The position numbers and the translations under genes were made by a program. Of a DNA stretch of 29,897 nt, positions 12,546 through 29,665 are shown one piece after another. Under the pieces are notes generated by a model. That model searched no databases, was not told where the DNA came from, and was given only the letters and a program-made list of their open reading frames with translations. Source of the stretch: a virus; the UHGV virus genome UHGV-1792943, one strand, 5' to 3'. Each line of letters starts with the position of its first letter. Position 1 is the first letter of the stretch.

Positions 12546-12602
12546 TGTTGCGATTGACTGTACAATAACCGTGCGGCGGGAATTTCATCGCTCGAAAATG
12601 TA

Positions 12603-12631
12603 TGTTAGAAAATTAAATTGATGTTTCTAAT
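12603..12631. promoter_or_regulatory. operator-like inverted pair (TGTTAGAAAA, 11 nt, TTTCTAAT)
   Basis: Upstream of the immI-like module. Confidence 0.45.
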
Positions 12632-12684
12632 CAAGAATGTATGATTTATATCGTCACTAAAAAACAGCATCTGATAAAAATTCT

Positions 12685-14090: not shown

Positions 14091-14098
14091 AGTGTGAT

Positions 14099-14123
14099 GC
14101 CCCGGCCTGGCCGGGGCTTTTTC
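14099..14123 (+). terminator. rho-independent terminator
   Basis: gccccgg-cctgg-ccggggc followed by TTTTT. Confidence 0.75.
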
Positions 14124-14613: not shown

Positions 14614-14744
14614 GCTCCGAATGAAAAAAGAGCAATAACTATGTTGAGAATGTGATTTCTATTACACCAAACATTATTAAACGGCATTCATCTTTAACTT
14701 TATTCAATGTATTATCTAACAGAAAAGTTAAGTTGCGCTAAGTT

Positions 14745-14756
14745 AATGATAACACT
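14745..14756 (+). promoter_or_regulatory. late-promoter-like conserved element (AATGATAACACT)
   Basis: Sits 44 nt upstream of the ATG at 14801. Confidence 0.3.
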
Positions 14757-14800
14757 GGTTATTATTGGTTTGCGTTATTTATTTGAGAAAAGAGAAAGTT

Positions 14801-15298
14801 ATGAAAAAAGCAATATTAGCGACTATTGTTTGTGCATTTGCATTATCAGGATGCGCTCCGGTTCAGACATACAACAAGCCTCAGCAAGTAAAACAGTTTG
14901 TTAAACGCCCAGCATTCCCTGTAGAGGAATATCAGGCATTGCCGAAAAAAGGCACAGGTAAGGTTAAGGGGGAATTATTTGGAGTAACTCGCGGAGGGGA
15001 TGTGAAGATTGGTGCTGGCTCCAATATCATACTGCGTCCGTATACTTCATATATCAAAAATACCCCCAAAATTGATTACGACACTCAGACCTTAGAAATA
15101 ATCGACGGCAGGGTTGCGGAATATGACAGAACTGTCCTGACTGATGCTCAAGGCAAATTTGAGTTCGAAAACGTACCACCAGGCCAGTATGAAGTGATTG
15201 GTTCGTTCAGTTGGTATGCTGGAAATTTCCCGCAAATCGTTCTTCTGAACAAAATCATTACCGTTAAGAACGGTGATGTTATCCAGGTTCAACCATGA
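14801..15298 (+). CDS. lipoprotein with a carboxypeptidase-regulatory-like beta-sandwich motif
   Basis: Signal peptide with lipobox LSGC; TDAQGKFEFENVPPGQYEV motif. Start taken at the internal ATG of the track ORF. Confidence 0.65.
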   Translation: MKKAILATIVCAFALSGCAPVQTYNKPQQVKQFVKRPAFPVEEYQALPKKGTGKVKGELFGVTRGGDVKIGAGSNIILRPYTSYIKNTPKIDYDTQTLEIIDGRVAEYDRTVLTDAQGKFEFENVPPGQYEVIGSFSWYAGNFPQIVLLNKIITVKNGDVIQVQP

Positions 15299-15338
15299 TC
15301 CCCTTTTGAGTAAGAACCTTCGGGGTGTGATTCTGCGA

Positions 15339-15350
15339 AATTAACACACT
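15339..15350 (+). promoter_or_regulatory. late-promoter-like conserved element (AATTAACACACT)
   Basis: Sits 44 nt upstream of the start at 15395. Confidence 0.35.
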
Positions 15351-15394
15351 CCATACCCTCTCAAACCGTACCGCTTAAGGCGGATTTAACGGTT

Positions 15395-18300
15395 TTGAGG
15401 GGGCTTCCTTTGGACAAAATAATTGATTCAATTAGCCAGGCCACCAGCATTGGGGCGCTGATTGAAATTGTTAGTCGGTTGCATAAACCGCGAGCTGTAG
15501 TGACCTTTGGCGTTAAGAAAGTCGATGGCGTCAGTATTCAGAAAACACGCCGGGCAGCAAACAACGCCGCAGTAAATCTTCTTAATTCCCTTCCGCCTGG
15601 CTTCGATGGGGCGAAATTAACTGACGAACAGCGCCAGATTCTTGCCGGGTATACCGGTGAAGGCGGCCTGACAGATGGTGAGGGCAGCCAATACGAATAC
15701 TATACGCCACAGTTTATGGCAGAAGGTATATGGGATCTCTTCGGCGACTACGGTATTGATAGCGGTCACGTACTGGAACCGTCAGCAGGCACAGGTATTT
15801 TCCAGGAGACAAAACGGCAGGGCATGATAATGACCAGCGCCGAACTGTCTCCGATCTCCGGTCGAATAAACCAGCTTTTGCACCCGGAAGATGATGTGAA
15901 TATCGGGGCGTTTGAGGCGCTGGCGGCGAAAGATGCAATGTATGACCACGCAGTTGGTAACGTACCGTTTGGCGAAGGGCGTTCCGGCGTCGCCGGGCTT
16001 GATCCGGCATATGCAAACGAGAAGAACGTTGGCAATTATTTTGTGCTGCGCACGATCGACAAGGTTAAGCCTGGTGGACTAATTGTATTGGTGGTGCCGA
16101 ATGGCATGACCGATGGTACGAAATACAAAAAATTGCGCGATAAAGTCAGCCGTAAAGCGGAATTTTTGGGCGCGCATCGTATGCCTTCTGGTACGTTCAG
16201 CGAATCCGGTACAGATACCGTGGTGGACGTATGGGTATTGCGTAAACACCCGGAAACCTTCCTGGAGATGATCCCCGACACGGATGATGCAACGCTCAAA
16301 TCGGCAAACGTCCTTTGGGATACCTTCCTCAAAGGGAAATGGTTTACAACCGAAGGGAAGCGATTTGTTTACGGCGACATGGAACGCACCAGCTTCCGCA
16401 ATACCCTGGTGGTGAAAAAGGACGGTCGTGTATCCAATGAGTCGATGAAAACCGCGTTATCACGCCGCTTTGAAAGCCGTATTAATTGGGATTTGCTCGG
16501 AGTAACTACCCAGGCATGGCAGGGCGCAAAAGTAGGGGATAAGCGTCTTGTAGGCGGTATCTGGCATGAGTTTGATGGCCTGAAATGGGTTAAGGACACG
16601 ACAACCAAATCCTCCGCGCTTGATGTAAGTCGATATGGTGTTTCGACGTTTGGCGATCTGCAGATCGCGTTCCAGTCAACAAACGGGATTCTGGCTTTGT
16701 CATGGGACCAGATATCGGCGATCGCGTCCGACTATCCATCGGTTGTCAGTGATGAAGTGGCAGCAATGATTCGCTTTGCTGGCAAACAGCGAGAAAAAGA
16801 CAGGGAGCGCGTTATGCGCGGTGCGTTGATAGGGCAGTTGATCAACAAGGCACTTGATTTGCGTAACCTGGGGGTGAACGTTGATGACAAACTGGCAGAT
16901 GCATCCCGCCTGGCGGCAGCAGAAGTTGCGAAGTATGGACCACCGCACGCGATTAAGCTGAATGGGCTTGCTGAAGCTGGCGCTAAAAACTGGATGACGT
17001 TCACTGGCAATGTGAAACAGGATGGTTCCACTTCTGACCTTCTGGCAGGGCGACTTGATGTAACGGATGGTGCTGCCGGTATTGACTTTACACGTCCGGA
17101 ACAAGTGATAGCACATCTTTTCAGTGATGTAGCCCTTAATCCTATAACGCTGGGCGACTTTCGTGAGGCGTTTGCTGGTGAACTGCCAGAGGACGACGAC
17201 GCGGCCCTTGAATACCTGGCGAAATTTGATGATATCGCTATTGATGGGTATGGCTGCCTGCTACCGATGGACCGCGCCACCAGCGGCGATATTGTAACCA
17301 AAACAGCATTGCTGGTGGGCTGGCGTGATGCATCAACAGGTGAGCAGAAAGCGAACTTTGAGCGTCAGTTGGCGAAAATCGAAGAGAAACGCATTTTCAC
17401 GCCACTAAATAAAGTCACCGTTAATCTGAACGCCCGCTGGCTGGATCGCCGCTTGATAAAAGAGTTCCTGGCAGAGCAGGGCTATGACGAGTTTAAGTAC
17501 ACAGAACCTGATCTGAAGATCGTCGATGGCATTCTGGTATCTCCGGACGATTACGAAGGTAAGGACGGGGTATTTACCGGCTATCAGCTACGAACCGTAA
17601 ACGGCAAAAACGGGAATGAGTTCAAGAAGGCCAACAATAAAGACGGCTTCCTGAACCAGTTAGAAAACTACCTGAACGGTGTTAAACCGCGTGGGCAGAA
17701 CGCTAACGAGTACCTGGATAAAATTGCTCAACTGGAAGTTAGCTTTAACGACTGGTTACGCACCCACCCGCAGGCGGATCAGATAGCCCGTGACTATAAC
17801 GACGCATTCAATGGCTTCATTCCGTTCACGCACTCTAACGCACCGCTTGGCCTGGAAGGGATTAGTGGAAAGCGCATTCCTCTGACTTATCAGAATGAAG
17901 AAGTTCGTCGCTTGTCAGAAGATGGGCGCGGCATCATGGGATTTGGTACCGGGCTGGGTAAAACCACGACCGCGCTTGCGCTTGAGGCGTATAACTTCGA
18001 AACAGGTCGTACTAAACGCACGTGTATTGTTGTTCCGAAGGCGGTTTATCAGAACTGGTATCACGAGGCACAGAGCTTCTACAGTGCTGATGCCTTCGCC
18101 AATATGATGTTTATCGGTCTGGATGAAGTTCGTGATGACAGCGGAAATATTCTGACCGCTCCGGTGCTTGATGAAAATGGCGAACCCCGCCTCGACAGTA
18201 ACGGGCAGCCTCTTACCAGAAATGTTGTGAAAGAGTCCGCCAGCGCCGTTATCGTTCAGCGCATGAACATGATCCCGTCGTCAAATTGGCGAACGGTCAT

Positions 18301-21300
18301 CATGACAAAAGAACAATTCGCGTCTATCCCGCTACGAGAAAAAACCATCGAGGAGAACTCACAGCAAGCTGTCTTTAATGCTGTGGAAATGGGGCGTCTT
18401 GACCTGGCGTCTGGTAAACATCGTGATGCGCAGAAGAAGAACAAGATTAAGGATCAGGCCGCGAATACCGGTACAACGAAGAAGCAGAATATCCCGTACT
18501 TTGAGGATATGAACTTCGATAGCGTGATTGCCGACGAGGGGCATAACTACCGCAACTCCTTTAATGCCGGGCGTGAAGCGGGACAACTGGCATATTTGCC
18601 TAACCCGGCAGTATCCAAGATGGCCCGCGACATGGCTGTAAAAGCTGCGTACATGATGAAACGCAACAACGGGCGTGGTGTAGTCATGCTGACGGCAACA
18701 CCGCTGGTGAACAGTCCGATTGATGCCTTCAACATGCTGTCTACAGTCATTCCGCAGGAAGAGTGGATGCGCATGGGCATCATTACGCCTGATGATTTCG
18801 TTCGTGTGTTTGGTAAAACAGCCACAGTTCAGGTCCAGAAAATTTCCGGGGAAGTGGAAGAGAAGCAGGGGCTGGTTGGCTTCCAGAACCTTGATGGCCT
18901 GCGTGGTATTTTCCATCGCTGGACTACTCTGAAGACTGCTGCGGACGTCGGGGCGACGGTTAAAATCCCTGATATTGTCGAGAATACCTTGCAGATCCCG
19001 ATGACAGGGGAGCAGGAGGCTGCTTATGAAGAGCTTCGTAAGCGTGCACAGGAGTTAAGTAGTAAAGATGCGCTGACGGTTGATGAAAACGGGCATATCA
19101 CAAACGAAAAACCGGATGATTTCATCTTCTCCATCATCCGCGACATGGATAAGGTTGCTATAGATCCGGATCTGTATGCCAGTGCGATTACATTCCAGTT
19201 CCCCGTTGAGCTTGCAGACAAGGTAAAAGCTATTGCTGATGCCCTGCCAAAAGTAGCTGGCGGTAAAGTGGCAGATGATGCAGACGAGGCCGAAGAAGAC
19301 GGCGCTGGTGGGCTGGTTAGTACGCGCACCAGTAAGGTAGTGAAGACCACCTTTAGTGAACATCCGGCGCATGTTGAAATACGTGCCAGCATTGAACTGG
19401 AAGCTGAAATACTGAAGGCCATTGCTGCCGCCGGGATTGATATGCAGCAGGTATCACACCCAATCCCGCCGAAGTATGCCGCGCTGATCGAAAACCTTCG
19501 TGAAGGTCTGAAGAACGGTAAACAAATTGTCTTCATTGATGAAAAAGCCCAGCACCAGAAGCTGCGCCGTATTATCGCCAGTGCACTGCAAATGCCGGAG
19601 CAAGAGATAGGCATTATCAATGCGACGACCGTTAGCCAGGCTGGCGGCATCAAGCTGAAGAAGGTGAATAAGCCGACTGAACCTACTCCGAATAAAAACG
19701 GTGAATACAAAGAAGGGGCATGGGAAACCTACTACAGCAAACTTGCCCAATATGAGGATTATCTCTCAGCTAAAAATGATGCTGGCCTTGAGGGTATGGA
19801 AGGCATTGCCGCCGACTATAACGAAGGGCGCACGCGCATAATTATCTGTAACAAGAAGGCTGAAGTAGGTATTAACCTGCATATCGGGACAACCGATATC
19901 CACCACCTGACACTACCCTGGACACCAGCCAGTATCGACCAACGAAATGGGCGCGGTGCGCGCGTAGGTTCACCGCAAGAGAAGGTCAATGTTCACTACT
20001 ATTGTGGCAAAGGCACATTCGACGACTTCCGTCTGGATACGCTGAAACGTAAGAAAGACTGGATCAAGATGGTGATGACCTCCGACATGTCAGAGATCGC
20101 CAATGGTGATGCGGATGATGCTGATGAACGCGCCATTATGCTGGCGGCAAACCCGGAAGAACGCCGCGCAATCATGGCTCGCCAGGCGCAAGAGCGTGAA
20201 GAACGTCTGAAACTGAAAGCACAGCGCGAGGCCAACAATGCTCTCGATATCTACCTGAAAGCGGCAAACGCCGCTGGAAAAGATATCGGCATGATGGAGA
20301 CAGAACTGAAAAGCGCGATGGAACAGATAGAGTATTACCAGCGAAATCTTGACGACCTGATAAAAGCAGGTACGAACAGGAATGGGCAAAAATTCGCGCT
20401 TGAGCAGTTGAGTAGCTACAGAAAACGTGCGCGGGTGCTGCGGTTTGCGATCACCAGGGCAAAAGACGCGGATACCATAATGAAACGCTCTCGTGGTGAT
20501 GTGGAGCGCGCTATTAAGTCTGGTGTGCTGGATATCAGTATCGATGTTATTCAGAACCCACAGGAATATATGCGCACTGACAAGAATATCCTGTTGCATA
20601 AAGGTAGTTATTACCGTGCAGTCATTGATGATCGCGAAACAACAGCGATTGTCCGGGTGGAAAAAATTGACGGTGAAAAAGCACAATACCTCTGCCGTAT
20701 CGCCTGGCTGGATAGAGCAAGTCGTTACGCTCGATCACCGGGGTCAATCGTTACATTGCCGTTTGACTCTGTGATTGAAGCGGTAACTTTTGAAGAGGGG
20801 GTAGCTGAATCGCGCGCAACGGCTGCGCGTGGTGTTCAGTGCCACCAGCTATCAACAATACTTACTCGCGATCAGTTCTATGATGCTATTCGCAATGGGG
20901 TAATGAATGTTATTGCTGGTAAACCTGGTAATGCATGGGGCGGTGGGTCAGCTATTAAATACTGGGCATATCGCACAGATGATGGTCAGATCGCGCTGTC
21001 ATCGGCCTATGATGGCGTGATAGGCCAAAAAATCGGGCGAGCATCGGATATAGCACCTGAACGATGGATATATCCAGATGGCAACGATGAGGCGCTGAAG
21101 CGTGAAGTGGCAAAAATACAAGCCAGTGATAACCCGCTGAATATCGTGGACGGCGAGGGATTCCTCCAGGCATTGTATGGGTATGATTACATCCAGGGAA
21201 TGCAGGCATGGGGCGCACAGGCAACGATGGATGATGTTGTCCAGGAGTTCGAAAACTGGATGGCTGGGCGTGGTCTGTCAGGTCGTTCGCTTAATAAAGT

Positions 21301-22246
21301 CACTTCTGAAGATATTCTTAGCTTGTTCCGCAAACCGTCCGGAGAAGGTCTGGAATCATTCTGGAGGACCGTGCTGGCATACCGTTTATTCAAGGGCAGA
21401 ATGAAAGCCTTTAGCAATATCGATGATATTGAACGGATGTTTAATCAGGTCAAGATCGCCAAAATTAAGACGAAGATCGAAAAAACACGTTCTGCGCTGG
21501 TGGCCTGGCGCGATGCATTGTTTGAGCAATATAAATCACTCAGTGATGCAGATGGATGGGCGGCATTGGAACAGTTGGCGAATAATGGGGTAGATGGAGC
21601 GAAACTCGCCATAGTCCAGGCTGATAACCCCCTGGAATCACCGGCAGCACAGTGGATTAAGGTGGGGGCTGTCATCAATGCATTTGATGAAAAACACATT
21701 AGTAAGGACGATTTTGCTGATGCTGTTTCTGTTAATCGCCTGGTAGAAATGGCTACCCGCCGCGCCCGTGAGTTGAAAGACGGTGACTATGTGAATGAGT
21801 TGCCGGATGCGCTCAAATCAGCAACGTGGCAAGACTATGTATCGCTGAAAAACGGCGGGGCCACCGAATCAGAGATCGCGGAAAGGCTTGAACAGGCTGA
21901 AAGCAAAAGAGAAGAGCAGGCGGCAGTGGCTGAAGCCAGAGCTGATGAAGCGGCGAATGATGACTATATCATTGTGGTTAATGATAAGCCGATTCGCGCT
22001 AAGGCGCGTGTTCGCGGGCGCTGGTGGAGTGTCAGCGAGGACGTCGGTGCGGTTTATCTCATTGCCGACCAACCTGGTTCCTCGACAATACGGAACGCCA
22101 AAGACGCGATTAAGAAGATTGGCGGGCGTTTCTGGAATTTTGAAGCAAACCCGGTTGCTGATGTGAACTTTGACCGTCCTGCATGGATGGTATCTACGCG
22201 TTACTCGGTAGATGAACTGCGTAAAATAATCGCCGATGCGGCCTAA
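15395..22246 (+). CDS. darB: giant N6-adenine methyltransferase plus SF2 helicase protein, DarB-like (2283 aa)
   Basis: MTase motifs YYTP, EPSAGTG (nt 15776-15796) and GNVPFG (nt 15956-15973). Helicase motifs: Walker A GTGLGKTT (from nt 17939), DEGH (nt 18533-18544), TATP, QRNGRGAR. TTG start is uncertain. Architecture and size match phage P1 DarB as recalled. Confidence 0.7.
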   Translation: MRGLPLDKIIDSISQATSIGALIEIVSRLHKPRAVVTFGVKKVDGVSIQKTRRAANNAAVNLLNSLPPGFDGAKLTDEQRQILAGYTGEGGLTDGEGSQYEYYTPQFMAEGIWDLFGDYGIDSGHVLEPSAGTGIFQETKRQGMIMTSAELSPISGRINQLLHPEDDVNIGAFEALAAKDAMYDHAVGNVPFGEGRSGVAGLDPAYANEKNVGNYFVLRTIDKVKPGGLIVLVVPNGMTDGTKYKKLRDKVSRKAEFLGAHRMPSGTFSESGTDTVVDVWVLRKHPETFLEMIPDTDDATLKSANVLWDTFLKGKWFTTEGKRFVYGDMERTSFRNTLVVKKDGRVSNESMKTALSRRFESRINWDLLGVTTQAWQGAKVGDKRLVGGIWHEFDGLKWVKDTTTKSSALDVSRYGVSTFGDLQIAFQSTNGILALSWDQISAIASDYPSVVSDEVAAMIRFAGKQREKDRERVMRGALIGQLINKALDLRNLGVNVDDKLADASRLAAAEVAKYGPPHAIKLNGLAEAGAKNWMTFTGNVKQDGSTSDLLAGRLDVTDGAAGIDFTRPEQVIAHLFSDVALNPITLGDFREAFAGELPEDDDAALEYLAKFDDIAIDGYGCLLPMDRATSGDIVTKTALLVGWRDASTGEQKANFERQLAKIEEKRIFTPLNKVTVNLNARWLDRRLIKEFLAEQGYDEFKYTEPDLKIVDGILVSPDDYEGKDGVFTGYQLRTVNGKNGNEFKKANNKDGFLNQLENYLNGVKPRGQNANEYLDKIAQLEVSFNDWLRTHPQADQIARDYNDAFNGFIPFTHSNAPLGLEGISGKRIPLTYQNEEVRRLSEDGRGIMGFGTGLGKTTTALALEAYNFETGRTKRTCIVVPKAVYQNWYHEAQSFYSADAFANMMFIGLDEVRDDSGNILTAPVLDENGEPRLDSNGQPLTRNVVKESASAVIVQRMNMIPSSNWRTVIMTKEQFASIPLREKTIEENSQQAVFNAVEMGRLDLASGKHRDAQKKNKIKDQAANTGTTKKQNIPYFEDMNFDSVIADEGHNYRNSFNAGREAGQLAYLPNPAVSKMARDMAVKAAYMMKRNNGRGVVMLTATPLVNSPIDAFNMLSTVIPQEEWMRMGIITPDDFVRVFGKTATVQVQKISGEVEEKQGLVGFQNLDGLRGIFHRWTTLKTAADVGATVKIPDIVENTLQIPMTGEQEAAYEELRKRAQELSSKDALTVDENGHITNEKPDDFIFSIIRDMDKVAIDPDLYASAITFQFPVELADKVKAIADALPKVAGGKVADDADEAEEDGAGGLVSTRTSKVVKTTFSEHPAHVEIRASIELEAEILKAIAAAGIDMQQVSHPIPPKYAALIENLREGLKNGKQIVFIDEKAQHQKLRRIIASALQMPEQEIGIINATTVSQAGGIKLKKVNKPTEPTPNKNGEYKEGAWETYYSKLAQYEDYLSAKNDAGLEGMEGIAADYNEGRTRIIICNKKAEVGINLHIGTTDIHHLTLPWTPASIDQRNGRGARVGSPQEKVNVHYYCGKGTFDDFRLDTLKRKKDWIKMVMTSDMSEIANGDADDADERAIMLAANPEERRAIMARQAQEREERLKLKAQREANNALDIYLKAANAAGKDIGMMETELKSAMEQIEYYQRNLDDLIKAGTNRNGQKFALEQLSSYRKRARVLRFAITRAKDADTIMKRSRGDVERAIKSGVLDISIDVIQNPQEYMRTDKNILLHKGSYYRAVIDDRETTAIVRVEKIDGEKAQYLCRIAWLDRASRYARSPGSIVTLPFDSVIEAVTFEEGVAESRATAARGVQCHQLSTILTRDQFYDAIRNGVMNVIAGKPGNAWGGGSAIKYWAYRTDDGQIALSSAYDGVIGQKIGRASDIAPERWIYPDGNDEALKREVAKIQASDNPLNIVDGEGFLQALYGYDYIQGMQAWGAQATMDDVVQEFENWMAGRGLSGRSLNKVTSEDILSLFRKPSGEGLESFWRTVLAYRLFKGRMKAFSNIDDIERMFNQVKIAKIKTKIEKTRSALVAWRDALFEQYKSLSDADGWAALEQLANNGVDGAKLAIVQADNPLESPAAQWIKVGAVINAFDEKHISKDDFADAVSVNRLVEMATRRARELKDGDYVNELPDALKSATWQDYVSLKNGGATESEIAERLEQAESKREEQAAVAEARADEAANDDYIIVVNDKPIRAKARVRGRWWSVSEDVGAVYLIADQPGSSTIRNAKDAIKKIGGRFWNFEANPVADVNFDRPAWMVSTRYSVDELRKIIADAA

Positions 22247-22282
22247 CAGATAAGGAGCGGCCCCAACCGGGGCCGAATTTGA

Positions 22283-22717
22283 ATGACGACATTAATTGAC
22301 ACTGTAAAACCGACGGAATCCTACCTTGAGGACATTTTGCCGCAGGCGCTCAATGGCAGGAGTGAAGAGGCGTTTCTGGATGCATATCTGGATGGCATGG
22401 CGGAAAGGCTGAAAAGAGATCCACAGCTTTATCATCTTTATGGGCCGTGGTGGCCTGCGCTTAAAACGTTATTGCTGGAGCGTGGCGACATATCATTTGG
22501 ACAAGTTGTAGATAGTGATGTGGCAGAAATCTACAAAATGAGTCGCCCGGCGCTTACGGTTTTAGCCGGGCATCTGTATTCGAGCGATCGCCTGGAAAAT
22601 GACGCGGTATACAATCCCGTTCATGCTCTGGAAGTCGCGCCTTATGCTGATGATACAGAGCCATACGTATACACAAGTTACGACGAGTCTATAGAGAAAT
22701 ATCGAATCGTGGGGTAG
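22283..22717 (+). CDS. hypothetical protein (144 aa)
   Basis: ORF directly after the giant gene; no motif recognised. Confidence 0.45.
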   Translation: MTTLIDTVKPTESYLEDILPQALNGRSEEAFLDAYLDGMAERLKRDPQLYHLYGPWWPALKTLLLERGDISFGQVVDSDVAEIYKMSRPALTVLAGHLYSSDRLENDAVYNPVHALEVAPYADDTEPYVYTSYDESIEKYRIVG

Positions 22718-22719
22718 CC

Positions 22720-22980
22720 ATGCGGAAGAATCGTAGGTTTACGATCGACGACTTAAAAGCGTACTCACAAGGGAAGGGATACGCCCTTGAATACCACCGT
22801 TATAAGCGGGTATTTACCCTGCGGCATATAGAAAACCCTTCGAAATGGGGATGGATTTATTTTCCGCACACTGACGATAAGCTGGTGGGACTTGTTGATG
22901 ATTTATCCTATGAAGGATGGATGATTGCTATCGACAAGGCGGTTACGGAAATTAACGAACCTGATAAAATAAACCATTAA
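22720..22980 (+). CDS. hypothetical protein (86 aa)
   Basis: Starts 3 nt after the upstream stop. Confidence 0.4.
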   Translation: MRKNRRFTIDDLKAYSQGKGYALEYHRYKRVFTLRHIENPSKWGWIYFPHTDDKLVGLVDDLSYEGWMIAIDKAVTEINEPDKINH

Positions 22981-23156
22981 AAATAACAAGTTGGGTAAAT
23001 GACATACAATTTACCCGGCTTGTTGACCCGCATCACCATTTACTCTAAAAACAAGTCCGACCTGTTGCATCCGCCTATCTCTTCAGTAGTATTCCCCTCG
23101 GTTTTGATAAAACTAACGCTCTTGTTATTATCGTGTTCATGATTTCAGGAAGTTTG

Positions 23157-23165
23157 TGTTAGAAA
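23157..23165. promoter_or_regulatory. operator-like site (TGTTAGAAA)
   Basis: Immediately upstream of the 23170 start codon. Confidence 0.4.
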
Positions 23166-23169
23166 TTTG

Positions 23170-23613
23170 ATGCGAAGACGCAGGCATCATAGTGCGTATT
23201 CTGAAATATCCCCGCACGCTGCTGCACTGAGAGAGTTAGAAAGAAATCCTGACTTATTAAAACGGAATTACGAACATTACGAACAGGTTCGCGTTCTGGA
23301 TTGGCTGTATCGCAACATGCGATACGTGTATGAGCACACACACTCAACACCGAACGGCGGCCTGAGAGGCAAAAGGACAGCCATTAAGATGGTGGCAGAA
23401 GGTCAGAAGAAGGGCTATCCGGACCTTTCTATTGACCTTGCTCGTGGTGGGTATCACGGAATGCGCATTGAGATGAAGCACGGGAGAAACCGTCTGACTC
23501 CCGAACAGCTCGTCTGGATGACTCGCCTCACGGAAGCAGGCTATTACTGCTTTGAGGCGCGCAGTGCCGATGAAGCCATAAAAGCTATCACGGAATATGT
23601 AAATCTTGATTAA
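23170..23613 (+). CDS. VRR-NUC domain nuclease
   Basis: GYPDLSIDL ... IEMK ... LTPEQLVW pattern of a PD-(D/E)xK VRR-NUC fold. Confidence 0.6.
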   Translation: MRRRRHHSAYSEISPHAAALRELERNPDLLKRNYEHYEQVRVLDWLYRNMRYVYEHTHSTPNGGLRGKRTAIKMVAEGQKKGYPDLSIDLARGGYHGMRIEMKHGRNRLTPEQLVWMTRLTEAGYYCFEARSADEAIKAITEYVNLD

Positions 23614-23627
23614 ACGGAGAAATCGTT

Positions 23628-23828
23628 TTGCGTTTACTTAACGTGGCTGAACTTATCCCTGCCGGTGCTAACGTTGTTGCTCGTCGCTGCTCATGGCCTC
23701 ATTCTTTCTGTATAGAGCTTAAAAAGATGGATGATGGGGCATTAGAAGCCCGAAACATAGTTACCGGCGACAAGGTATGCATTACCCCGGAAAGCGCGAA
23801 AGCCAATGATTGGGAGTTTGTTCATTGA
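23628..23828 (+). CDS. small DUF2829 (Tad2)-like protein, 66 aa
   Basis: TTG start with SD GGAGA; VARRCSW and C-terminal ANDWEFV motifs shared with 13893-14090 and the C-terminus of 28603-29178. Confidence 0.4.
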   Translation: MRLLNVAELIPAGANVVARRCSWPHSFCIELKKMDDGALEARNIVTGDKVCITPESAKANDWEFVH

Positions 23829-23890
23829 GCAGAAAACACCACGTAAATCTGACGTTTGCTGATGACGCCGGAAGAACCAGAAGCATAACC

Positions 23891-24136
23891 ATGAAAGTTG
23901 CTTCCAGGAAAGTAACCGCGCCACTTATACGAGAGGCCGTAAGTGAACTTGATATGAGTGAGAATGCAGCTCTGTTATCGGTAAGCTGGCTGGGGAAAAT
24001 GACGGATCAGGAATACTCGGATGGTATACCCCACGGTGAGCGGCAGATAGTAAAGCGCGCGTTTAGAATTTCAGAGGTAGTTGTCGTACTGATAGCTTTG
24101 ATTTATATGGCATACATGCTACTCCAACACGTCTAA
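23891..24136 (+). CDS. small C-terminally membrane-anchored protein
   Basis: C-terminal hydrophobic helix VVVVLIALIYMAYMLL; start uncertain (track ORF begins at 23810). Confidence 0.35.
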   Translation: MKVASRKVTAPLIREAVSELDMSENAALLSVSWLGKMTDQEYSDGIPHGERQIVKRAFRISEVVVVLIALIYMAYMLLQHV

Positions 24137-24144
24137 ACGGTCAT

Positions 24145-24169
24145 AAACCCGCCAGTTGGCGGGTTTTTT
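24145..24169 (+). terminator. rho-independent terminator
   Basis: aacccgcc-agtt-ggcgggtt followed by TTTTTTG. Confidence 0.8.
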
Positions 24170-24211
24170 GTTGCCTGAGTCTTTTTATTGAAATTGCATA
24201 CTAATAAAATA

Positions 24212-24221
24212 TGTTAGAAAA
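24212..24221. promoter_or_regulatory. operator-like site (TGTTAGAAAA) within a promoter-like region
   Basis: TTGAAA, 16 nt, TATGTT arrangement overlaps the site; 25 nt upstream of the ATG at 24246. Confidence 0.45.
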
Positions 24222-24245
24222 CTAATTTCAAGAAAGGGAACAAAC

Positions 24246-25454
24246 ATGAGTCAGCAAGTAGAATCATCAAGCCTGGAGATCATCTCAACCGCAATTGAAA
24301 CGCTGCGGACACAAATCGCGCTTATACAGAAACGAAATCCGGGCGATGACCTGTCAAAGCGACTGCATGAGAGCGTCATTGCCACTACAGATAACCTGGT
24401 GGCGGAAATCAACCAGCTCCTTGATGATGGGGCAGTTGATTACAATAAGCTGGTGGATCAGTTTGAGGAATATCAGCAAGCCGTTAATGATGGCTTGATC
24501 CGTTTTTCTCAAGTCACTGGTGTATCAGCGACAGTTGAAAGCCTGGGGGATGCAGTTAATCAATTTGCCGCGAATATGCGTAATGAGATCGGCAATCTGG
24601 AGGCGCGTCTTGAGCAGGCAAATACACTGCGCAAATCTGCTGAAGTCGATTTGAGTCGTTACAAAAAAGACTATCCGCCAAGCCTGACAAAACGACTGGA
24701 TGTTGCGGAGAAAGATAACCGCACGCTGAAAAGAGAGCGTCGGGAACTAAAAGAGCGTTTAACCAAGCTAAATCAGCAATGCGTTGAGTATCAAGGCGAA
24801 CTCGTCACACTGCGTAAAAAGTTAGCAGCGGCGCAGAGCATTATTGAAACATTGAAACGAGAGTGCTCAGAGCTTGGTCATGATCTGAATCGCGCCTGTG
24901 GCATGGGGCAAAGGCCAGAGACATTCCCGCTAATGTATGACGGAAGAGAAGCTATTGCCTATATCCATGAGTTTCCGCATGGTCTGGTCGCGGAGACTGG
25001 GCAACGTGGCGAAGCGTTGCTGACGGCAAATTACCATCAGCAAATCAGAACCAGCCGCCTGCTGACGATGGATGTGATCCCGTCAGTATGGGGAACGCCG
25101 CTTTACTACCGAATTCCTGGCTTCGAAACTGACTGGAATACCGACATAGACGAATGTCTGGCAGATAAAATTATGGCGTACCTTGAAACGGATTTTCCAC
25201 GCTTGCATCGCCGGATTATGGACTCTAAGGATGCACCGATCGACGAATTGAAAATGCGTCCAGAGACGTTGGAGGCAATCAAGCAGACTGAGTTTGATAC
25301 AGTGTTCAGTGTGGCCTGCATTCCAAGCAGCTTTCATGAAAGCATTCCGTTCATGCAGGGCGATCGCCGTCAGGAAATAATTGATGCTTGCCGGGTATGG
25401 GCGAACGAGTGGGATAAGAAGAACGGTGGAGTTGAAAATCTTTACGGGAAATAA
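24246..25454 (+). CDS. hypothetical protein with N-terminal coiled coil (402 aa)
   Basis: Long ORF bracketed by a terminator and operator-like sites on both sides. Confidence 0.6.
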   Translation: MSQQVESSSLEIISTAIETLRTQIALIQKRNPGDDLSKRLHESVIATTDNLVAEINQLLDDGAVDYNKLVDQFEEYQQAVNDGLIRFSQVTGVSATVESLGDAVNQFAANMRNEIGNLEARLEQANTLRKSAEVDLSRYKKDYPPSLTKRLDVAEKDNRTLKRERRELKERLTKLNQQCVEYQGELVTLRKKLAAAQSIIETLKRECSELGHDLNRACGMGQRPETFPLMYDGREAIAYIHEFPHGLVAETGQRGEALLTANYHQQIRTSRLLTMDVIPSVWGTPLYYRIPGFETDWNTDIDECLADKIMAYLETDFPRLHRRIMDSKDAPIDELKMRPETLEAIKQTEFDTVFSVACIPSSFHESIPFMQGDRRQEIIDACRVWANEWDKKNGGVENLYGK

Positions 25455-25456
25455 TG

Positions 25457-25485
25457 TGTTAGAAAATTAAAATTGTTTTTCTAAC
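25457..25485. promoter_or_regulatory. operator-like perfect inverted repeat (TGTTAGAAAA, 9 nt, TTTTCTAACA)
   Basis: Read directly; the best palindromic copy of the motif family. Confidence 0.5.
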
Positions 25486-25607
25486 ATATTGATTATGTAG
25501 TTAACTTAACATAGAATTTTTCGTGCTGGTGGGGAGCTTCCCATGTCGCTTGCGGGTTTGATAGTCACTTCATTGTCTTTCCCCACCAGCATCAAACAAT
25601 TTTAAGT

Positions 25608-25617
25608 GTTAGAAAGT
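25608..25617. promoter_or_regulatory. operator-like site (TGTTAGAAAG)
   Basis: Member of the same family. Confidence 0.35.
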
Positions 25618-25827
25618 AAATTTTAAGGTAAGGGAAAGCTCCGGCACCGTGCAAATACATGCCCGGCAGGTTTAGTGCGTAAAGTGGTTTCAGCGAGAGC
25701 ATTTTACGGAGTAAACGACAGTGACTTGAGCCACGGAAGGTCTTTTTATGGTGTTCATTGATGATGATCTGGCAGTGAGTATGTTAAGTGGGCCAGGCTG
25801 CATCGGGTCATCATCAGTGCACATCCT

Positions 25828-25906
25828 CAACGTTAAGGAGGCGCAGAGTTGGGTTTTCCTCTTATTTTGCTGACTCTGAGTCTCCTTAACGTTGCGGTAA
25901 TGCACC
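25828..25906 (+). repeat. hairpin family member H1 (arms CAACGTTAAGGAG / CTCCTTAACGTTG, tail GCGGTAATGCACC)
   Basis: Inverted arms with the conserved 3' tail shared with H3-H6. Confidence 0.5.
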
Positions 25907-26313
25907 TATGCGGATGTGGCCTTGCATTGTGTCTTGAAAGAATGGGGTAAGGCCGGGGATATTCCCAGGGGGAGGCACCCCCGCTGCAACGAACAGCCAT
26001 AGACGGCAGTCGAGTGATGAAAACGTGAAAAGACTTTAAACCTCGTTACGGCTGGCGTGGCAAACGCGACAACCGGGATAGGACGGTGACGGGCGGAGAG
26101 AGAGCCGCTTCAAGATAAAAGCCGACTATGGATTCCTTTCTGCGGGCCTTTGAAAGTGAATCTTGCTCAGGCAGTCGGCTTTTATGTTGATACGTAGCGA
26201 TAACCGCGACAGGCGCGGCGGTAAGTATGGCGGGGTTATTCCTTCCCCGTTGAGGACACCGAGTTGCCAGGTTGACCATACGCCTAAGTGGCAATACCGC
26301 GAGTGGGATATTT

Positions 26314-26339
26314 GCCCACCTTCGGGTGGGTGTTTTTTC
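26314..26339 (+). terminator. rho-independent terminator
   Basis: cccacc-ttcg-ggtggg followed by TGTTTTTTC. Confidence 0.75.
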
Positions 26340-26522
26340 AGTGTTTTCGTCATGGTTAGCGACTTTGCGGCGGTTTAGAACCCGACCATTAAAGTAAATG
26401 CAAACGATGATCTGATGATGGTAGCGGCCTAAGAAGCCTGACGCCACGGGGTATGAGTCGTCCCCCGTCAAAAAATCGACCGCAGAGTGTCCCCGTCTGT
26501 GTATTAGGGAACGGGGAGGCAT

Positions 26523-26599
26523 AACAGGCAAGGGCGCTGGTGTGATTAACCAGATGAATGAGAAGGGTCAGGTCTTTCTGGTCAGCGCCCTTACCTGTT
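26523..26599 (+). repeat. hairpin family member H2 (arms AACAGGCAAGGGCGCTG / CAGCGCCCTTACCTGTT)
   Basis: 17-bp near-perfect stem; arm sequence related to H3. Confidence 0.45.
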
Positions 26600-26799
26600 A
26601 CGTCCCTCCCGCGTAACAGCCATTGGTTAATGGCTTTCTGGGATAATGTCTTGTAACGGGTATATCCCGTCATGCTGAAGGCGCTAATCACGCTGGAAGC
26701 CAGGGTTATGCATCCCCTGTTACCGAATTGCAGCCAGGGCGCGGTGCGCCGAAAAGCATACGGAGGTGGAAGCCCTCGCCGGAGACGTACCCGGCAAGT

Positions 26800-26876
26800 G
26801 ATGGTGTAGCTCAGTAGGATAGAGCAGCAGCCTTCTAAGCTGTCGGTCGGTGGTTCGAATCCACCCACCATCGCCA
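26800..26876 (+). tRNA. tRNA-Arg (anticodon TCT)
   Basis: Full cloverleaf folded by hand: acceptor gatggtg / caccatc, anticodon loop cttctaa, T-loop ttcgaat, encoded CCA. Confidence 0.8.
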
Positions 26877-26882
26877 ATTTAG

Positions 26883-26968
26883 GGGAGTTAGTCCGTAGGG
26901 GTAGCGGGGTAGACTGTAAATCTACTGTCATTGCGACTCGGATGGTTCGACTCCATCACTCCCCACCA
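26883..26968 (+). tRNA. tRNA-Tyr-like (anticodon GTA), long variable arm, slightly irregular D-arm
   Basis: Acceptor ggggagt / actcccc, anticodon stem gtaga / tctac with loop ctgtaaa, 15-nt variable arm, T-loop ttcgact, CCA. Confidence 0.5.
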
Positions 26969-26972
26969 AATT

Positions 26973-27048
26973 GCCGGTTTAGCTCAGTTGGTAGAGCGCC
27001 TGCCTTGTAAGCAGGATGTCAGCGGTTCGAGTCCGTTAACCGGCACCA
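26973..27048 (+). tRNA. tRNA-Thr (anticodon TGT)
   Basis: Acceptor gccggtt / aaccggc, anticodon loop cttgtaa, T-loop ttcgagt, CCA. Confidence 0.8.
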
Positions 27049-27050
27049 AC

Positions 27051-27146
27051 ACAACAGGTAAGGGTATTTTGCGACGTCGGAGATCGCCGAGCTTGGCAGA
27101 GGGTTCGAATCCCTACGAAGTACCCTTACCGTTGTGATGAATGCAC
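27051..27146 (+). repeat. hairpin family member H3, with an internal T-arm-like minihelix
   Basis: Arms ACAACAGGTAAGGGTA / TACCCTTACCGTTGTG, tail ATGAATGCAC; begins 3 nt after tRNA-Thr. Confidence 0.55.
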
Positions 27147-27315
27147 AGGCTGATGTGCCGCAACTACAGTAGTGCGCGCTTTGCGGGGCTTGCTACAACC
27201 CTGTGTCGGAATTCAGCACCGACCATCACAGTTTGATTCTCTGGCATGAGCATAACGCTGAAATAAGTCCAGTCTGGTGCGGTCTGATCACCCGCCGTTA
27301 GCTCCACGATACGGA

Positions 27316-27416
27316 GCGCACAACAGGTAAGAGTATTTGTAGAGTTCGACTCTCTACCGTGGGCTTTTTCCCGCGATGCGAGCCATAAATGCTCTTTCCG
27401 TTGTGGTGAATGCGCG
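27316..27416 (+). repeat. hairpin family member H4, with an internal perfect T-arm-like hairpin (gtagag-ttcgact-ctctac)
   Basis: Arms GCGCACAACAGGTAAGAGTATTTG / AAATGCTCTTTCCGTTGTGG, tail TGAATGCGCG. Confidence 0.55.
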
Positions 27417-27558
27417 TTGCTAGCGCGCAAGTCCGCCCTATGGCAACGAGGCGGCGTAGTAAATATCGATGCCTCAGTCATCAAGCGCACTGACCGGCCT
27501 TATGGGCTATGAAAAAAAGAGGCGCAGTCGGAGTTCAGCACCGACCATCACAATCACT

Positions 27559-27645
27559 GGAGAGTAGGGAGCATGGTGCTCAAGCGGTCTTGAAAACCGT
27601 CCCATTGCGCAAGCGATGATGGTTCGATTCCATTACTCTCCGCCA
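27559..27645 (+). tRNA. tRNA-Ser-like (anticodon TGA), type II with long variable arm
   Basis: Acceptor ggagagt / actctcc, anticodon stem gcggt / accgt with loop cttgaaa, T-loop ttcgatt, CCA. The D-arm is not perfectly canonical. Confidence 0.45.
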
Positions 27646-27768
27646 GCGCAACGTTAAGAGTATTTGGCTAATTAAGCGAATGCCGGAAGCAGAACCGGAT
27701 CACCAAATGCGTACAGGCGTCATCGCCGCCCAGTCAGCCAAATGCTCTTACCATTGCGGTGAATGCGG
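27646..27768 (+). repeat. hairpin family member H5
   Basis: Arms GCGCAACGTTAAGAGTATTTGGC / GCCAAATGCTCTTACCATTGCGG, tail TGAATGCGGC; starts at the base after the tRNA-Ser-like CCA. Confidence 0.55.
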
Positions 27769-27936
27769 CTAAGCGCACGCGGAACAGTTAAAACAGTAAA
27801 GGTGGTCTTTTTACTGGCGTAACGAGAATCCATAAGTGATCCGGCGTTAATTGTTAACTGGTTAACGTCACCGGGAGGCACCCGGCACCGCAACCTAACA
27901 GCAATGGCGTTTTGTCTTAAAAGGTGGCTGCAAGTG

Positions 27937-28065
27937 ATGGATTTTTGGGCGTTTGCCGATAAAAACCCGGAGTGGACATTATTGTTTCTGCTGGTGGTTG
28001 CATACGGGGTAGAGCAAGCGGCAAAAGCCTTACGCGGTTCTGGCAAAAAGCGTAAGCGTAATTAA
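27937..28065 (+). CDS. 42-aa small membrane peptide (MDFWAFADKNPEWTLLFLLVVAYGVEQAAKALRGSGKKRKRN)
   Basis: SD AAGGTGG 8 nt upstream of the ATG; one hydrophobic helix and a basic tail; absent from the ORF track because it is under 60 aa. Confidence 0.35.
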   Translation: MDFWAFADKNPEWTLLFLLVVAYGVEQAAKALRGSGKKRKRN

Positions 28066-28074
28066 CAGTAATCT

Positions 28075-28150
28075 GGCCCTTTAGCTCAGTGGTTAGAGCG
28101 GGCGACTCATAATCGCACGGTCACCGGTTCAAGTCCGGTAGGGGCCACCA
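28075..28150 (+). tRNA. tRNA-Ile2 (anticodon CAT, lysidine type)
   Basis: Near-identical to the enterobacterial ileX-type tRNA as recalled: acceptor ggccctt / aggggcc, anticodon loop ctcataa, T-loop ttcaagt, CCA. Confidence 0.8.
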
Positions 28151-28329
28151 CATTTGGTTGTAACACGGCGTATGGCACATGCGTCGTTAGCGGTCTGGTG
28201 TAGCTGTTAGGTACCTTTTACTAACACTGCATGGGCACACCAGGTAGCCGGAATGTGCAAGCCCCGTTCATAGCGTCGGACTGCGGATTCACCATCCTGG
28301 CGATTCGGTGTGACAGCCGGAAGAGCACG

Positions 28330-28391
28330 GCGTACAACAGGAAAAGGCGTTTAATTAGCGTGAGCGCCGTTTCCGTTGTGGTAATTGCGGC
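28330..28391 (+). repeat. hairpin family member H6 (short-loop version)
   Basis: Arms ACAACAGGAAAAGGCG / CGCCGTTTCCGTTGTGG, tail TAATTGCGGC. Confidence 0.5.
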
Positions 28392-28602
28392 TATGCGCTC
28401 GTAACGAAGCCATTTTCATTCACTACGTTCTGATAAGGGTCGTCCCGGGGCGTGGCTACCCGGGCAGGGGGGGGCCCCCCCGCCACAACTCCTTTCAATT
28501 CATCATATAGCCGCTCAGGCTGTAACCCTTAATTAATACGAAGTTACGACGTCACTACCGGTTCAGCCGGGGGATAGTCGCGCGTGTAAAAAAGGAGACG
28601 TT

Positions 28603-29178
28603 ATGTTAACGGCGAACGATAACGCGTATTTAGAAGATGATCTCGTTTTGAGTGACTTTATAGGGCGACGAGAATGCTGGACGCAAAAGCGCGAGGAGCT
28701 TTATGCAGCGTTAGTTCGTAAAGGCGTCAACATCGAAACCGCACAGAACGGTGATATGACAGTGGTAAGTGTTGGACTGCACGGCGTAAGTGTGTCAGCA
28801 ATCAATCATGAGCCGTACATTGCGTTATCCGAGTCGATGGTAAGGTTAGTTAAGTTCCTGAAGTACACAGAAGCGAATAACGTGCTCATTGCCAAAAAGA
28901 ACATCCCGTTCTCATCGGCCTTTTACTGGATGATGAAGGGGCTTGATGCCCGGCGAACATCATGGCCTAAAGGGAGCTATATATCGATGCTCCGTGGCAG
29001 TGTTGGTAGCAAAGAAAAGCTCGTCGAATTCCTGCCGGAAGAGGCATTCGATATTGTTGAAGGTTGTGATGTGATGGTTATGCCTCGCCTGGTAATGATG
29101 AATGGGGATTTACAGGCGCAGACAGACTGGTTTGCAACTGGAGTTGATATTATCGCTACTGACTGGGAGGTTTTTTGA
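28603..29178 (+). CDS. hypothetical protein with C-terminal DUF2829 (Tad2)-like domain (191 aa)
   Basis: SD AGGAG. C-terminal half carries ARRTSWPKG and AQTDWFATGVDIIATDWEVF, matching the two small ORFs at 13893 and 23628. Confidence 0.6.
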   Translation: MLTANDNAYLEDDLVLSDFIGRRECWTQKREELYAALVRKGVNIETAQNGDMTVVSVGLHGVSVSAINHEPYIALSESMVRLVKFLKYTEANNVLIAKKNIPFSSAFYWMMKGLDARRTSWPKGSYISMLRGSVGSKEKLVEFLPEEAFDIVEGCDVMVMPRLVMMNGDLQAQTDWFATGVDIIATDWEVF

Positions 29179-29558
29179 TGTACGAGGCTACTAAATTACG
29201 CACTGAGGATGCGATGCACATTGGTTGGGACATCATCACCTGCAAGATAACATCATGCAAGGCTACACGCACAGACGCCGGACACAAGAGCACAATATCA
29301 GGTTATGTCGTGATGTCAGTCAGGAGTGTGCGCATACGCTTCAGATGGAAAGCCTGCCAGGTTACATCATCAATGCCGCTTACCGTCGAGCAGGATTATT
29401 TATGCTTACCCGAAATAGACGGAGCGTTGCTGGTGGGCAATAGTGGTCGAAAAGCCGATTTTGAAGCCAGTCTGAAGATGGCGCAGGCGGTGATCAACAA
29501 ACATAAAGGGAAGTGGGAGGCAAAAGTTAAGCATGTTGTTCGTTTATCCCGCTGGTAG
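29178..29558 (+). CDS. hypothetical protein (126 aa)
   Basis: TGATG coupling to the upstream gene; no motif recognised. Confidence 0.45.
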   Translation: MYEATKLRTEDAMHIGWDIITCKITSCKATRTDAGHKSTISGYVVMSVRSVRIRFRWKACQVTSSMPLTVEQDYLCLPEIDGALLVGNSGRKADFEASLKMAQAVINKHKGKWEAKVKHVVRLSRW

Positions 29559-29586
29559 TGTTAGCAAATTGATATTAATTTTCTAA
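29558..29586. promoter_or_regulatory. operator-like inverted pair (TGTTAGCAAA, 11 nt, TTTCTAAT)
   Basis: Same spacing as the 12603-12631 site; upstream of the partial gene at the right edge. Confidence 0.45.
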
Positions 29587-29665
29587 TACATCATGTTTTT
29601 GACAGTCTTCTCAGTATTAACAAGCTGATTATCATCCCCTCGGTCTTTTTCTATCCGGGGGATAA

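Follow-up and report, generated by a model that had tools for sequence, protein, structure and literature searches.

Two phages offer described counterparts for the locus treated here, a gene for a protein of 402 amino acids (aa) and the regulatory sites around it in the virus genome UHGV-1792943; the whole stretch that we analyzed, 29,897 nucleotides (nt), is called the window throughout. Escherichia phage D6 is a P1 relative whose prophage is carried as a plasmid. In P1 itself, pmgR and pmgS are contiguous, with a single base between them, and share one sigma-70 promoter flanked by C1 operators (OpmgRa/OpmgRb, formerly Op86a,b), on which the P1 record notes 'controls expression of pmgR and pmgS'. 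The same record places C1 operators before pmgT, lpa, c1/coi, pmgL, ppp, the ban operon and pmgR-pmgS. A genuine terminator, GCTGGTGG-AGTGCGC-CCACCAGC-T7, lies ~20 nt past the P1 pmgS stop codon. The P1 ban operon has the operator Obanab (Op72ab) at the promoter P1ban, followed by an untranslated leader (the 'dicF-like region'), trnA, trnT, tciABC, trnI and ban. Few genes of P1-like plasmids are reported to be as well conserved as pmgS (PMC9603915), and the name 'putative morphogenetic function' is historical.

By its sequence, the 402-aa gene of the window is pmgS, a known but functionally uncharacterised gene; it is a conserved family gene and not cargo. The protein matches the 'PmgS-like' profile PHROG 1660 with E = 3.8e-143 (residues 1-401 on positions 1-404 of 405), is 94% identical to the product of D6 orf9, and aligns collinearly with P1 PmgS by BLASTP over residues 2-395 (22% identity, E = 2e-13). 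It lies directly downstream of pmgR, as it does in D6 and in the relatives that we designate L005, L007, L008 and L011-L013, and pmgS is syntenic across P1, D6 and relatives even where protein identity falls to 22-46%. The family is small: an exhaustive profile search among 1.8 billion proteins returned 86 cluster representatives, mostly of 360-470 aa. The window as a whole can be assigned from its sequence to the D6-like, P1-family phage-plasmids, as a new member of the D6 group. The DNA of the pmgS region is 85% identical to D6 (NC_050154 / MF356679), and the gene order is that of D6: darB-ulx-orf13-pmgM-orf11-pmgR-pmgS is followed by a stretch without genes, by the tRNA genes and, at some distance, by lpa and pacA. 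The pmgS locus also matches 886 plasmids in PLSDB; their hosts are E. coli, Salmonella and Klebsiella, and nearly all of them are non-mobilisable and ~90 kb in size.

Our reading of the locus, to which as a whole we give a probability of roughly 75%, is that pmgS and the tRNA operon behind it are two adjacent early units kept silent in the prophage by a C1-type repressor. Inactivation of the repressor would switch on both units and, with them, the remaining early ones (pmgM-pmgR, repL, lpa and immI). As a gene that would be under an operator of the prophage repressor, pmgS is expected to be off in lysogens and on after induction or infection. The sole transcript-level statement on pmgS that we found concerns lytic infection: when P1vir infects a host with an hfq deletion, pmgS is among the genes over-induced at 10 min (bioRxiv 10.64898/2025.12.28.696737). 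One joint part of the reading, that the gene is pmgS and that the sites downstream of it belong to the tRNA operon, we hold with high confidence.

The elements of the pmgS unit, in window coordinates, are these:
24145-24172, plus strand: intrinsic terminator closing the pmgR unit, stem AAACCCGCC/GGCGGGTTT (24145-24166) followed by a T run, from a terminator scan
24198-24205, unstranded: left operator half-site, degenerate, ATACTAAT (TTTCTAAT in distant relatives), from the nine-locus alignment
24205-24210, plus strand: predicted pmgS -10 hexamer, TAAAAT (TATAAT/TACAAT/TAGAAT in relatives)
24210-24227, plus strand: right operator half-site of pmgS, TATGTTAGAAAACTAATT, position weight matrix (PWM) score 25.9, among the best-scoring sites
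24246-25454, plus strand: pmgS homologue, 402 aa, ATG start, PHROG 1660, from the list of open reading frames (ORFs)

We aligned nine pmgS loci, those of the window, L010, D6, L011, L007, L005, L012, L013 and L008, whose PmgS proteins are 46-95% identical to that of the window. The comparison supports pmgS as a monocistronic unit with its own predicted sigma-70 promoter. The terminator after pmgR is present in all nine loci, with stem sequences that co-vary, and a core of the form TTTCTAA-TANAAT-N2-3-GTTAGAAA, in which the -10 stands between inverted half-sites, is shared by all nine; the columns CTAAT-A-NAAT are invariant. Near-consensus promoters (TTTACA/TTTACT-16-TATAAT) are found in L005 and L008, and a 29-nt block spanning these window elements, ACTAATAAAATATGTTAGAAAACTAATTT, is 100% identical in D6 while its flanks have diverged. 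A consensus scan had offered TTGAAA-16-TATGTT as the pmgS promoter; we dropped this candidate, as D6 lacks the TTGAAA and the other -10 is conserved in the nine loci. Since the -10 lies between the inverted half-sites, repressor bound there would occlude it in the prophage. Where P1 has pmgR and pmgS under a single promoter, a terminator and a separate promoter-operator stand between the two genes here.

The pmgS half-site is one copy of a repeated motif. The core GTTAGAAA occurs 10 times in the window against 1.0 expected, a count reached in none of 100 shuffles. With an 18-nt PWM derived from the clear copies, the window has 11 sites where 1.1 are expected, every one of them between genes, and D6 has 18 against 2.0 expected. 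Three bivalent palindromes of 30-34 bp and like geometry are among them, at 12601-12634 (before c4), 25455-25488 and 29557-29590 (before lpa). Across D6 and the window, sites stand before the c1 ribosome-binding site, ref and lpa (30-bp palindromes), repL, c4/icd/ant, hrdC-dmt, ppp/pdcB, pmgM, pmgS and the tRNA genes. Because these are positions at which P1 has C1 operators, the site is likely the C1 operator of the D6 group. By this analogy, we think it quite probable that the motif is a C1-type operator with an immunity specificity of its own, that of the D6 immunity group. It does not match the P1 operator consensus ATTGCTCTAATAAATTT, the core here being TGTGTTAGAAAATTAA (P1 ATTGCTCTAATAAATTT against GTTAGAAA, in a comparison where the PmgS proteins themselves are 22% identical), and D6 C1 is homologous to P1 C1 at 21% identity.
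11395, 12601/12617, 14706, 23155, 24210, 25455/25471, 25605, 29557/29573: starts of the PWM sites in the window
29557-29590, unstranded: bivalent operator before lpa, found with the PWM, the positional counterpart of P1 Olpa/Op94

Beyond the pmgS stop codon, the window continues as follows:
25455-25488, unstranded: bivalent operator O1, which touches the pmgS stop codon on one side and the next -35 on the other (PWM scores 26.5 and 23.9, one on each strand)
25489-25517, plus strand: predicted sigma-70 promoter of the tRNA ('ban-type') operon, TTGATT-17-TAGAAT, from a consensus scan
25523-25592, plus strand: long hairpin at the start predicted for the tRNA-operon transcript
25605-25622, plus strand: monovalent operator O2, PWM score 21.0, ~85 nt downstream of the predicted start
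25623-26799, plus strand: ORF-free untranslated leader of ~1.2 kb, of which 26201-26799 is homologous to the P1 ban-operon leader
26800-28150, plus strand: tRNA genes Arg(TCT), Tyr(GTA), Thr(TGT), Ser(TGA) and a Met/Ile2-type (CAT), called by ARAGORN and Rfam

The order of this module is the same in the nine loci: O1 at or overlapping the stop codon, TTGATT, a spacer, the -10, the hairpin and O2. The -35 of the tRNA-operon promoter is invariant and its -10 reads TA-N-AAT in nearly all loci, while the 17-nt spacer varies freely. At O2, TGTTAGAA is invariant and the continuation ...AACAAATTAAAG...AAGTAT nearly so; the O2 block AACAAATTAAAGTGTTAGAAAAGTAT is the most conserved block of the post-pmgS module. 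In L005 and L012, tRNA-Thr begins ~50 nt after O2. All of the window's tRNA genes lie on the pmgS strand.

The match to P1 extends into the leader. Window positions 26201-26878 are 86% identical to P1 68736-69425 (blastn, 678 nt), including the 'dicF-like region', and a terminator-like hairpin at 26313-26332 is shared with the P1 ban leader. O1 is the positional counterpart of P1 Obanab/Op72ab, and in both regions a palindromic, bivalent operator accompanies a sigma-70 promoter, with tRNA genes following after a long untranslated leader. Because the module and the leader match the P1 ban operon, we assign the palindrome, the hairpin and O2, from their sequence, to the control region of the next unit, which comprises the leader and the tRNA genes. 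That unit would run O1, promoter, hairpin from about +1, O2, 1.2-kb leader, tRNA genes.

The two regions also differ. The P1 ban operator overlaps the promoter hexamers and follows dmt, whereas O1 abuts the -35 and follows pmgS; the second operator at ~+85 and ~680 nt of extra hairpin-rich leader have no part in the P1 arrangement. No ORF for Ban (a DnaB-like helicase) occurs between the tRNA genes and lpa in the window, and none is annotated in D6. The D6 orf9 region has the same neighbours, operator sites, promoter hexamers and hairpin as the window; the second arm of its post-pmgS palindrome is degenerate, and its tRNA set is Asn, Thr, Ser and Met against Arg, Tyr, Thr, Ser and Met here.

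The rest of the leader (25623-26200) belongs to the D6 group only and contains many long hairpins, which could be processing sites or small RNAs. Rfam (gathering threshold and E <= 1) has no family for the post-pmgS hairpin or the leader, and its DicF model gave no match. Only four inverted repeats in the window have arms within 120 nt of each other that share an exact seed of >=11 nt; three of them fall in the leader region (25519-25596, 25812-25910 and 26110-26190), which has another repeat at 26513-26609. The leader stems stay paired through compensatory changes in D6, L011 and L005, and the loops have diverged. The 26201-26878 module is found at ~87% identity in roughly 500 other plasmids of ~95 kb with no annotated feature beneath it. 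O1 is also complementary to the flank of O2 over a longer stretch (25467-25486 / 25607-25626); this was set aside as a by-product of inverted operator copies, since D6 lacks it.

The long hairpin has a perfect 12-bp core, TGCTGGTGGGGA (25524-25535) with TCCCCACCAGCA (25580-25591), and 14 pairs in its minimum-energy fold (-30.7 kcal/mol, z = -2.8 to -3.4), around a 42-44-nt loop with two small sub-hairpins. Each locus was folded separately, and the stems of the different lineages extend in different directions with no common register. A closing stem of 11-19 bp that begins 5-8 nt past the -10 is present in eight of the nine loci (z = -3.1 to -5.7). Its sequence changes while the pairing is kept: GGGGA/TCCCC in the window corresponds to GGGCG/CGCCC in D6 (GA/TC vs CG/CG), and the stems read GTTGTTGCTGGTGG/CCACCAGCAACAAC in L005, TTGTTGTCACTGGT/ACCAGTGGCAACAA in L012 and GTTGTCGGTGCT/AGCATCGACAAC in L008. 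The G.U pairs found in L008, L012 and L010 are valid only in plus-strand RNA. We take the hairpin to be an RNA structure kept by selection at the very start of the predicted tRNA-operon transcript, which it would probably stabilise or process.

The same hairpin might instead serve mainly as the pmgS terminator, as in P1, and be no leader element of the tRNA operon. The stem is strong (12-14 bp), and the P1 terminator at ~20 nt past the stop codon, GCTGGTGG-loop-CCACCAGC-T7, shares the stem core. However, in none of the nine loci does a U-tract follow the stem (it is followed by AUCAAACAAUUUUAAG), the loop spans 30-45 nt, and stop codon and stem are separated by a conserved promoter, which puts the start of the stem at about +1. 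The terminator scan does not report the hairpin either. The P1 counterpart, by comparison, has all three marks of an intrinsic terminator: a G+C-rich stem, a short loop and a U-tract immediately behind it. Because no locus has a U-tract, the hairpin is not a canonical intrinsic terminator, and we rate a mainly terminating role as unlikely, if the best placed of the alternatives to the leader role. The two roles can coexist: the hairpin may partly stop read-through from pmgS, which is possible because P1 has a true terminator with a GCTGGTGG/CCACCAGC stem there. The post-pmgS stems of P1 and the window both contain Chi, with T7 behind the P1 stem as against a 44-nt loop and no U-tract here. The comparison suggests a stem of common descent with P1, operator and promoter having been inserted between stop codon and stem in the D6 group.

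Both arms of the hairpin carry the Chi octamer GCTGGTGG, at 25525-25532 (plus strand) and 25583-25590 (minus strand), which raises another possibility: that the stem is kept as an inverted Chi pair, a DNA-level signal to RecBCD arriving from either direction, its pairing being incidental. Exact octamers stand in both arms in the window, L010, D6, L011, L005 and P1, even though the flanks cannot be aligned with P1. P1-family phages depend on RecBCD and are strongly Chi-enriched; the enrichment of P1, P7 and D6, denser toward the packaging end, has been published (PMC12315714; bioRxiv 2021.07.08.451572). Yet L008 and L012 retain a 12-14-bp stem without Chi, L007 retains Chi without a stem, and the G.U pairs indicate a constraint at the RNA level. 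Moreover, one more Chi site is unsurprising in a window that has 15 against 0.8 expected (D6 has 53). We rejected Chi as the sole cause of the stem, and treat it as secondary, because L008 and L012 have the stem without it; as the main explanation it is improbable. The Chi sites of the window span 13239-29436, with none in the first 13 kb, and 11 of the 15 are on the plus strand.

For the protein, an AlphaFold2 (AF2) model built from 10 close sequences was poor, with a predicted local distance difference test score (pLDDT) of 64, and a useful alignment needed the exhaustive profile search; with 59 sequences the pLDDT is 85. Residues 4-217 (nt 24255-24896) are predicted to form four long, coiled-coil-like helices, residues 226-280 (nt 24921-25085) a beta domain, and residues 299-393 a C-terminal helical domain with a double helix-hairpin-helix, (HhH)2, region at ~321-379 (nt 25206-25382). 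A coiled coil had been expected of the protein from its sequence; this holds for the N-terminal half and fails for the rest. Homology searches with the single sequence gave little: Pfam and PDB yielded coiled-coil noise only, a word-indexed second search for homologues found nothing new, and matches in Pfam, NCBIfam and PADLOC were sub-threshold hits to the coiled-coil arms of myosin, SMC, Rad50 and JetC, with no family assigned to PmgS by NCBIfam or PADLOC. The PmgS family profile, by comparison, matches the C-terminal domain (CTD) of the RNA polymerase alpha subunit and the N-terminal domain (NTD) of RAD51 with E ~1e-5, and the local structure superposes at 1.9-2.4 Å over 55-61 residues. Searches of PDB and BFVD returned no global structural relative of PmgS.

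The HhH domain of PmgS is newly described here. Among (HhH)2 proteins, the RNA polymerase alpha-CTD and the RAD51/RadA NTD belong to a polymerase or a recombinase; PmgS has neither core, and carries its domain behind a helical region of 215 residues and a small beta domain. From this domain, we see an even chance that PmgS binds DNA. PmgS would oligomerise through its helical half and bind DNA non-specifically in early lytic development, an accessory role on DNA that would be dispensable in the laboratory; our confidence in any specific biological role is low. A more particular idea, which we regard as a long shot, makes PmgS a DNA tether that lacks an ATPase: as a coiled-coil oligomer it would display RAD51-NTD/alpha-CTD-like HhH domains and, produced soon after infection or induction, would bridge or organise phage DNA. 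Alternatively, PmgS could imitate the alpha-CTD and so draw away host transcription factors or UP-element DNA. If the tether idea were true, PmgS might aid the Chi/RecBCD/RecA-dependent circularisation or concatemer formation that P1-family phages need, and its laboratory dispensability would reflect redundancy with Cre-lox and host pathways.

Annotations in MF356679 and PHROG 1660 label PmgS differently, assigning it to head morphogenesis or prohead scaffolding. A long helical build is typical of scaffolds, no protein has yet been identified as the P1 scaffold, and the neighbouring pmgR is needed for P1 head completion (PMC9024508). The same paper also lists an in-frame P1 pmgS deletion as one of 24 mutants without a plaquing or anti-restriction defect, and in the parts consulted it names only PmgC and PmgG, and not PmgS, as newly virion-associated Pmg proteins of P1. 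CRISPR interference (CRISPRi) knock-down of P1 pmgS likewise left an efficiency of plating of 1.2 (PMC10695390); by both deletion and knock-down, then, P1 pmgS is dispensable for plaques. P1 pmgS is transcribed from a C1-controlled sigma-70 promoter and has no Lpa late promoter, and the predicted promoter here is operator-controlled, not late. The gene is no neighbour of the portal, protease or capsid genes: pmgS lies ~13 kb from the prt/pro homologues (~8.7-11.4 kb, by D6 synteny), and the major capsid gene is outside the window. Because the C-terminal domain is of the DNA-binding HhH type, the 'scaffold/morphogenetic' label is probably wrong, and we consider a scaffolding function unlikely.

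An earlier sequence-only reading of this DNA had already picked out several of the elements described above. The 402-aa ORF, a predicted promoter of its own overlapping an operator (the -10 TAAAAT at 24205-24210 between half-sites in the nine-locus comparison), the operator-like sites (11 by PWM against 1.1 expected), the palindromic operator immediately after the gene (two site copies on opposite strands, 25455-25488) and the hairpin with a perfect 12-bp stem are all present; the hairpin, placed at 25525-25593, was off by 1-2 nt. The interval that this reading marked opens with the intrinsic terminator of the pmgR unit (24145-24166 and its T run). Structure prediction, which that reading proposed as a check, gave the helical N-terminal half, the beta domain and the C-terminal (HhH)2.

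Its interpretation has fared less well. It took the gene for an accessory one, bracketed by operators and insulated by them as a toxic function or else expressed in lysogens for exclusion or defence. pmgS is indeed a separate unit with an operator over its -10, and P1 pmgS is non-essential, as accessory genes often are. Repressor control of a single gene therefore survives in part: the sites are very probably operators, P1 supplies a precedent and pmgS is its own unit, but the downstream sites belong to the tRNA operon. The palindrome, hairpin and third site, which supplied the bracket, are the counterpart of the P1 Op72ab/P1ban region. P1, D6 and relatives all have the gene in the same setting, and it is reported to be highly conserved in P1-like plasmids (PMC9603915), which argues against an accessory one. 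Control by the repressor implies silence in lysogens, and PADLOC finds no defence family beyond coiled-coil noise, its best model being JetC2 (E = 8e-6, 21.9 bits, coiled-coil arm only), without partner genes. The P1 deletion left plaquing and anti-restriction unchanged (PMC9024508); for these two traits in P1, it thus lacks the phenotype whose absence that reading itself had named as speaking against it. Taken as a whole, the reading is very unlikely.

Hardly credible is the suggestion that the GTTAGAAA sites are Lpa-type late-promoter activator sites or bind a regulator other than C1: a -10-like A/T-rich sequence often follows the core (GTTAGAAAATTAAAT) and D6 has one site in the gap from the major capsid gene to orf52, but the sites stand directly before c1, lpa itself, c4/immI, repL and ref, the classical P1 C1 regulon, several are bivalent palindromes like P1 Oc1ab and Obanab, the motif is missing from most late-gene intergenic regions of the window, and the P1 late -22 boxes are unrelated in sequence, which together with the placement before c1 and lpa ruled a late-promoter motif out.

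Several points weigh against two early units under C1, as set out above. The pmgS -35 is poor (TTTTTA/TTTTAT, ~16-17 nt upstream of the predicted -10), and the left half-site is degenerate in the subgroup of the window and D6. O1 abuts the tRNA-operon -35 without overlapping it, and O2 lies at ~+85, an arrangement in which repression might work by looping or as a roadblock. C1 binding is proposed from the placement of the sites and by analogy, and the D6 operator may have been described already, perhaps differently. L007 has no 3' arm of the hairpin; because it lost this arm, the hairpin is not indispensable. The HhH assignment combines an E of ~1e-5 with a local structural match; in Pfam searches alone it is significant in 5-6 of 59 family members, the window's PmgS itself falling below significance, and the AF2 model is a monomer, uninformative on oligomerisation.

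Other features of the window accompany these units. Upstream of pmgS lies
23825-24136, plus strand: pmgR homologue, from the ORF list and synteny with D6 orf10 ('similar to P1 pmgR'), start TTG at 23825 or 23810

and this is the last gene of a pmgM-orf11-pmgR unit with its own promoter, TTGATA-16-TATTAT (23104-23131), and an operator at 23155-23172 found with the PWM. The window encodes the c4 antisense RNA of the immI region (Rfam). The bivalent operator at 12601-12634 precedes a1/b1 target elements and c4 (Rfam RF03163 and RF01695; 12601-12914), and a P1-type immI control region is conserved with a D6-type operator because the operator sits before a1/b1 and c4. The 191-aa product of the ORF at 28603-29178 (plus strand) contains a domain resembling Tad2 (Thoeris anti-defence 2; PF11195, 40.4 bits where the cut-off is 25), and the ORF is conserved in L007 and L008 too, immediately in front of lpa. 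In L005 (7603-9239) and in another relative, L009 (1-3308), genes for a Tn3-family transposase and resolvase are inserted near the pmgS/tRNA region, in differing places; given these insertions in two relatives, the neighbourhood tolerates cargo.

Among the tRNA genes, Ser(TGA) at 27558-27645 (plus strand) comes near the Rfam selenocysteine-tRNA model (44.6 bits against a gathering threshold of 47); in the D6 record, tRNAscan-SE did not call the amino acid of its counterpart. A near-threshold match to the small RNA STnc100 in Rfam (40.8 bits against 47, E = 9e-7) lies at 27755-27892 (plus strand), between tRNA-Ser and tRNA-Met. The D6 RefSeq tRNA genes are annotated on the strand opposite to that called by ARAGORN (L001 9078-9783 = NC_050154 7145-7850), and ARAGORN finds a fourth D6 tRNA (Met, CAT) that the D6 record leaves unannotated.

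The arrangement is ordinary for the P1 family, in which the gene and the regulatory logic, early promoters scattered under the control of the prophage repressor, are known from P1. A consistent operator set for the D6 immunity group is a modest addition that concerns hundreds of ~90-kb E. coli and Salmonella phage-plasmids and would be useful for annotation and for predicting heteroimmunity. The conserved hairpin at the 5' end of the leader and the hairpin-rich 1.2-kb leader before phage tRNA genes are likewise a modest addition. Operator control argues for pmgS as an early lytic gene and against one expressed in lysogeny, and its predicted HhH domain gives a concrete hypothesis for what this conserved gene may do.

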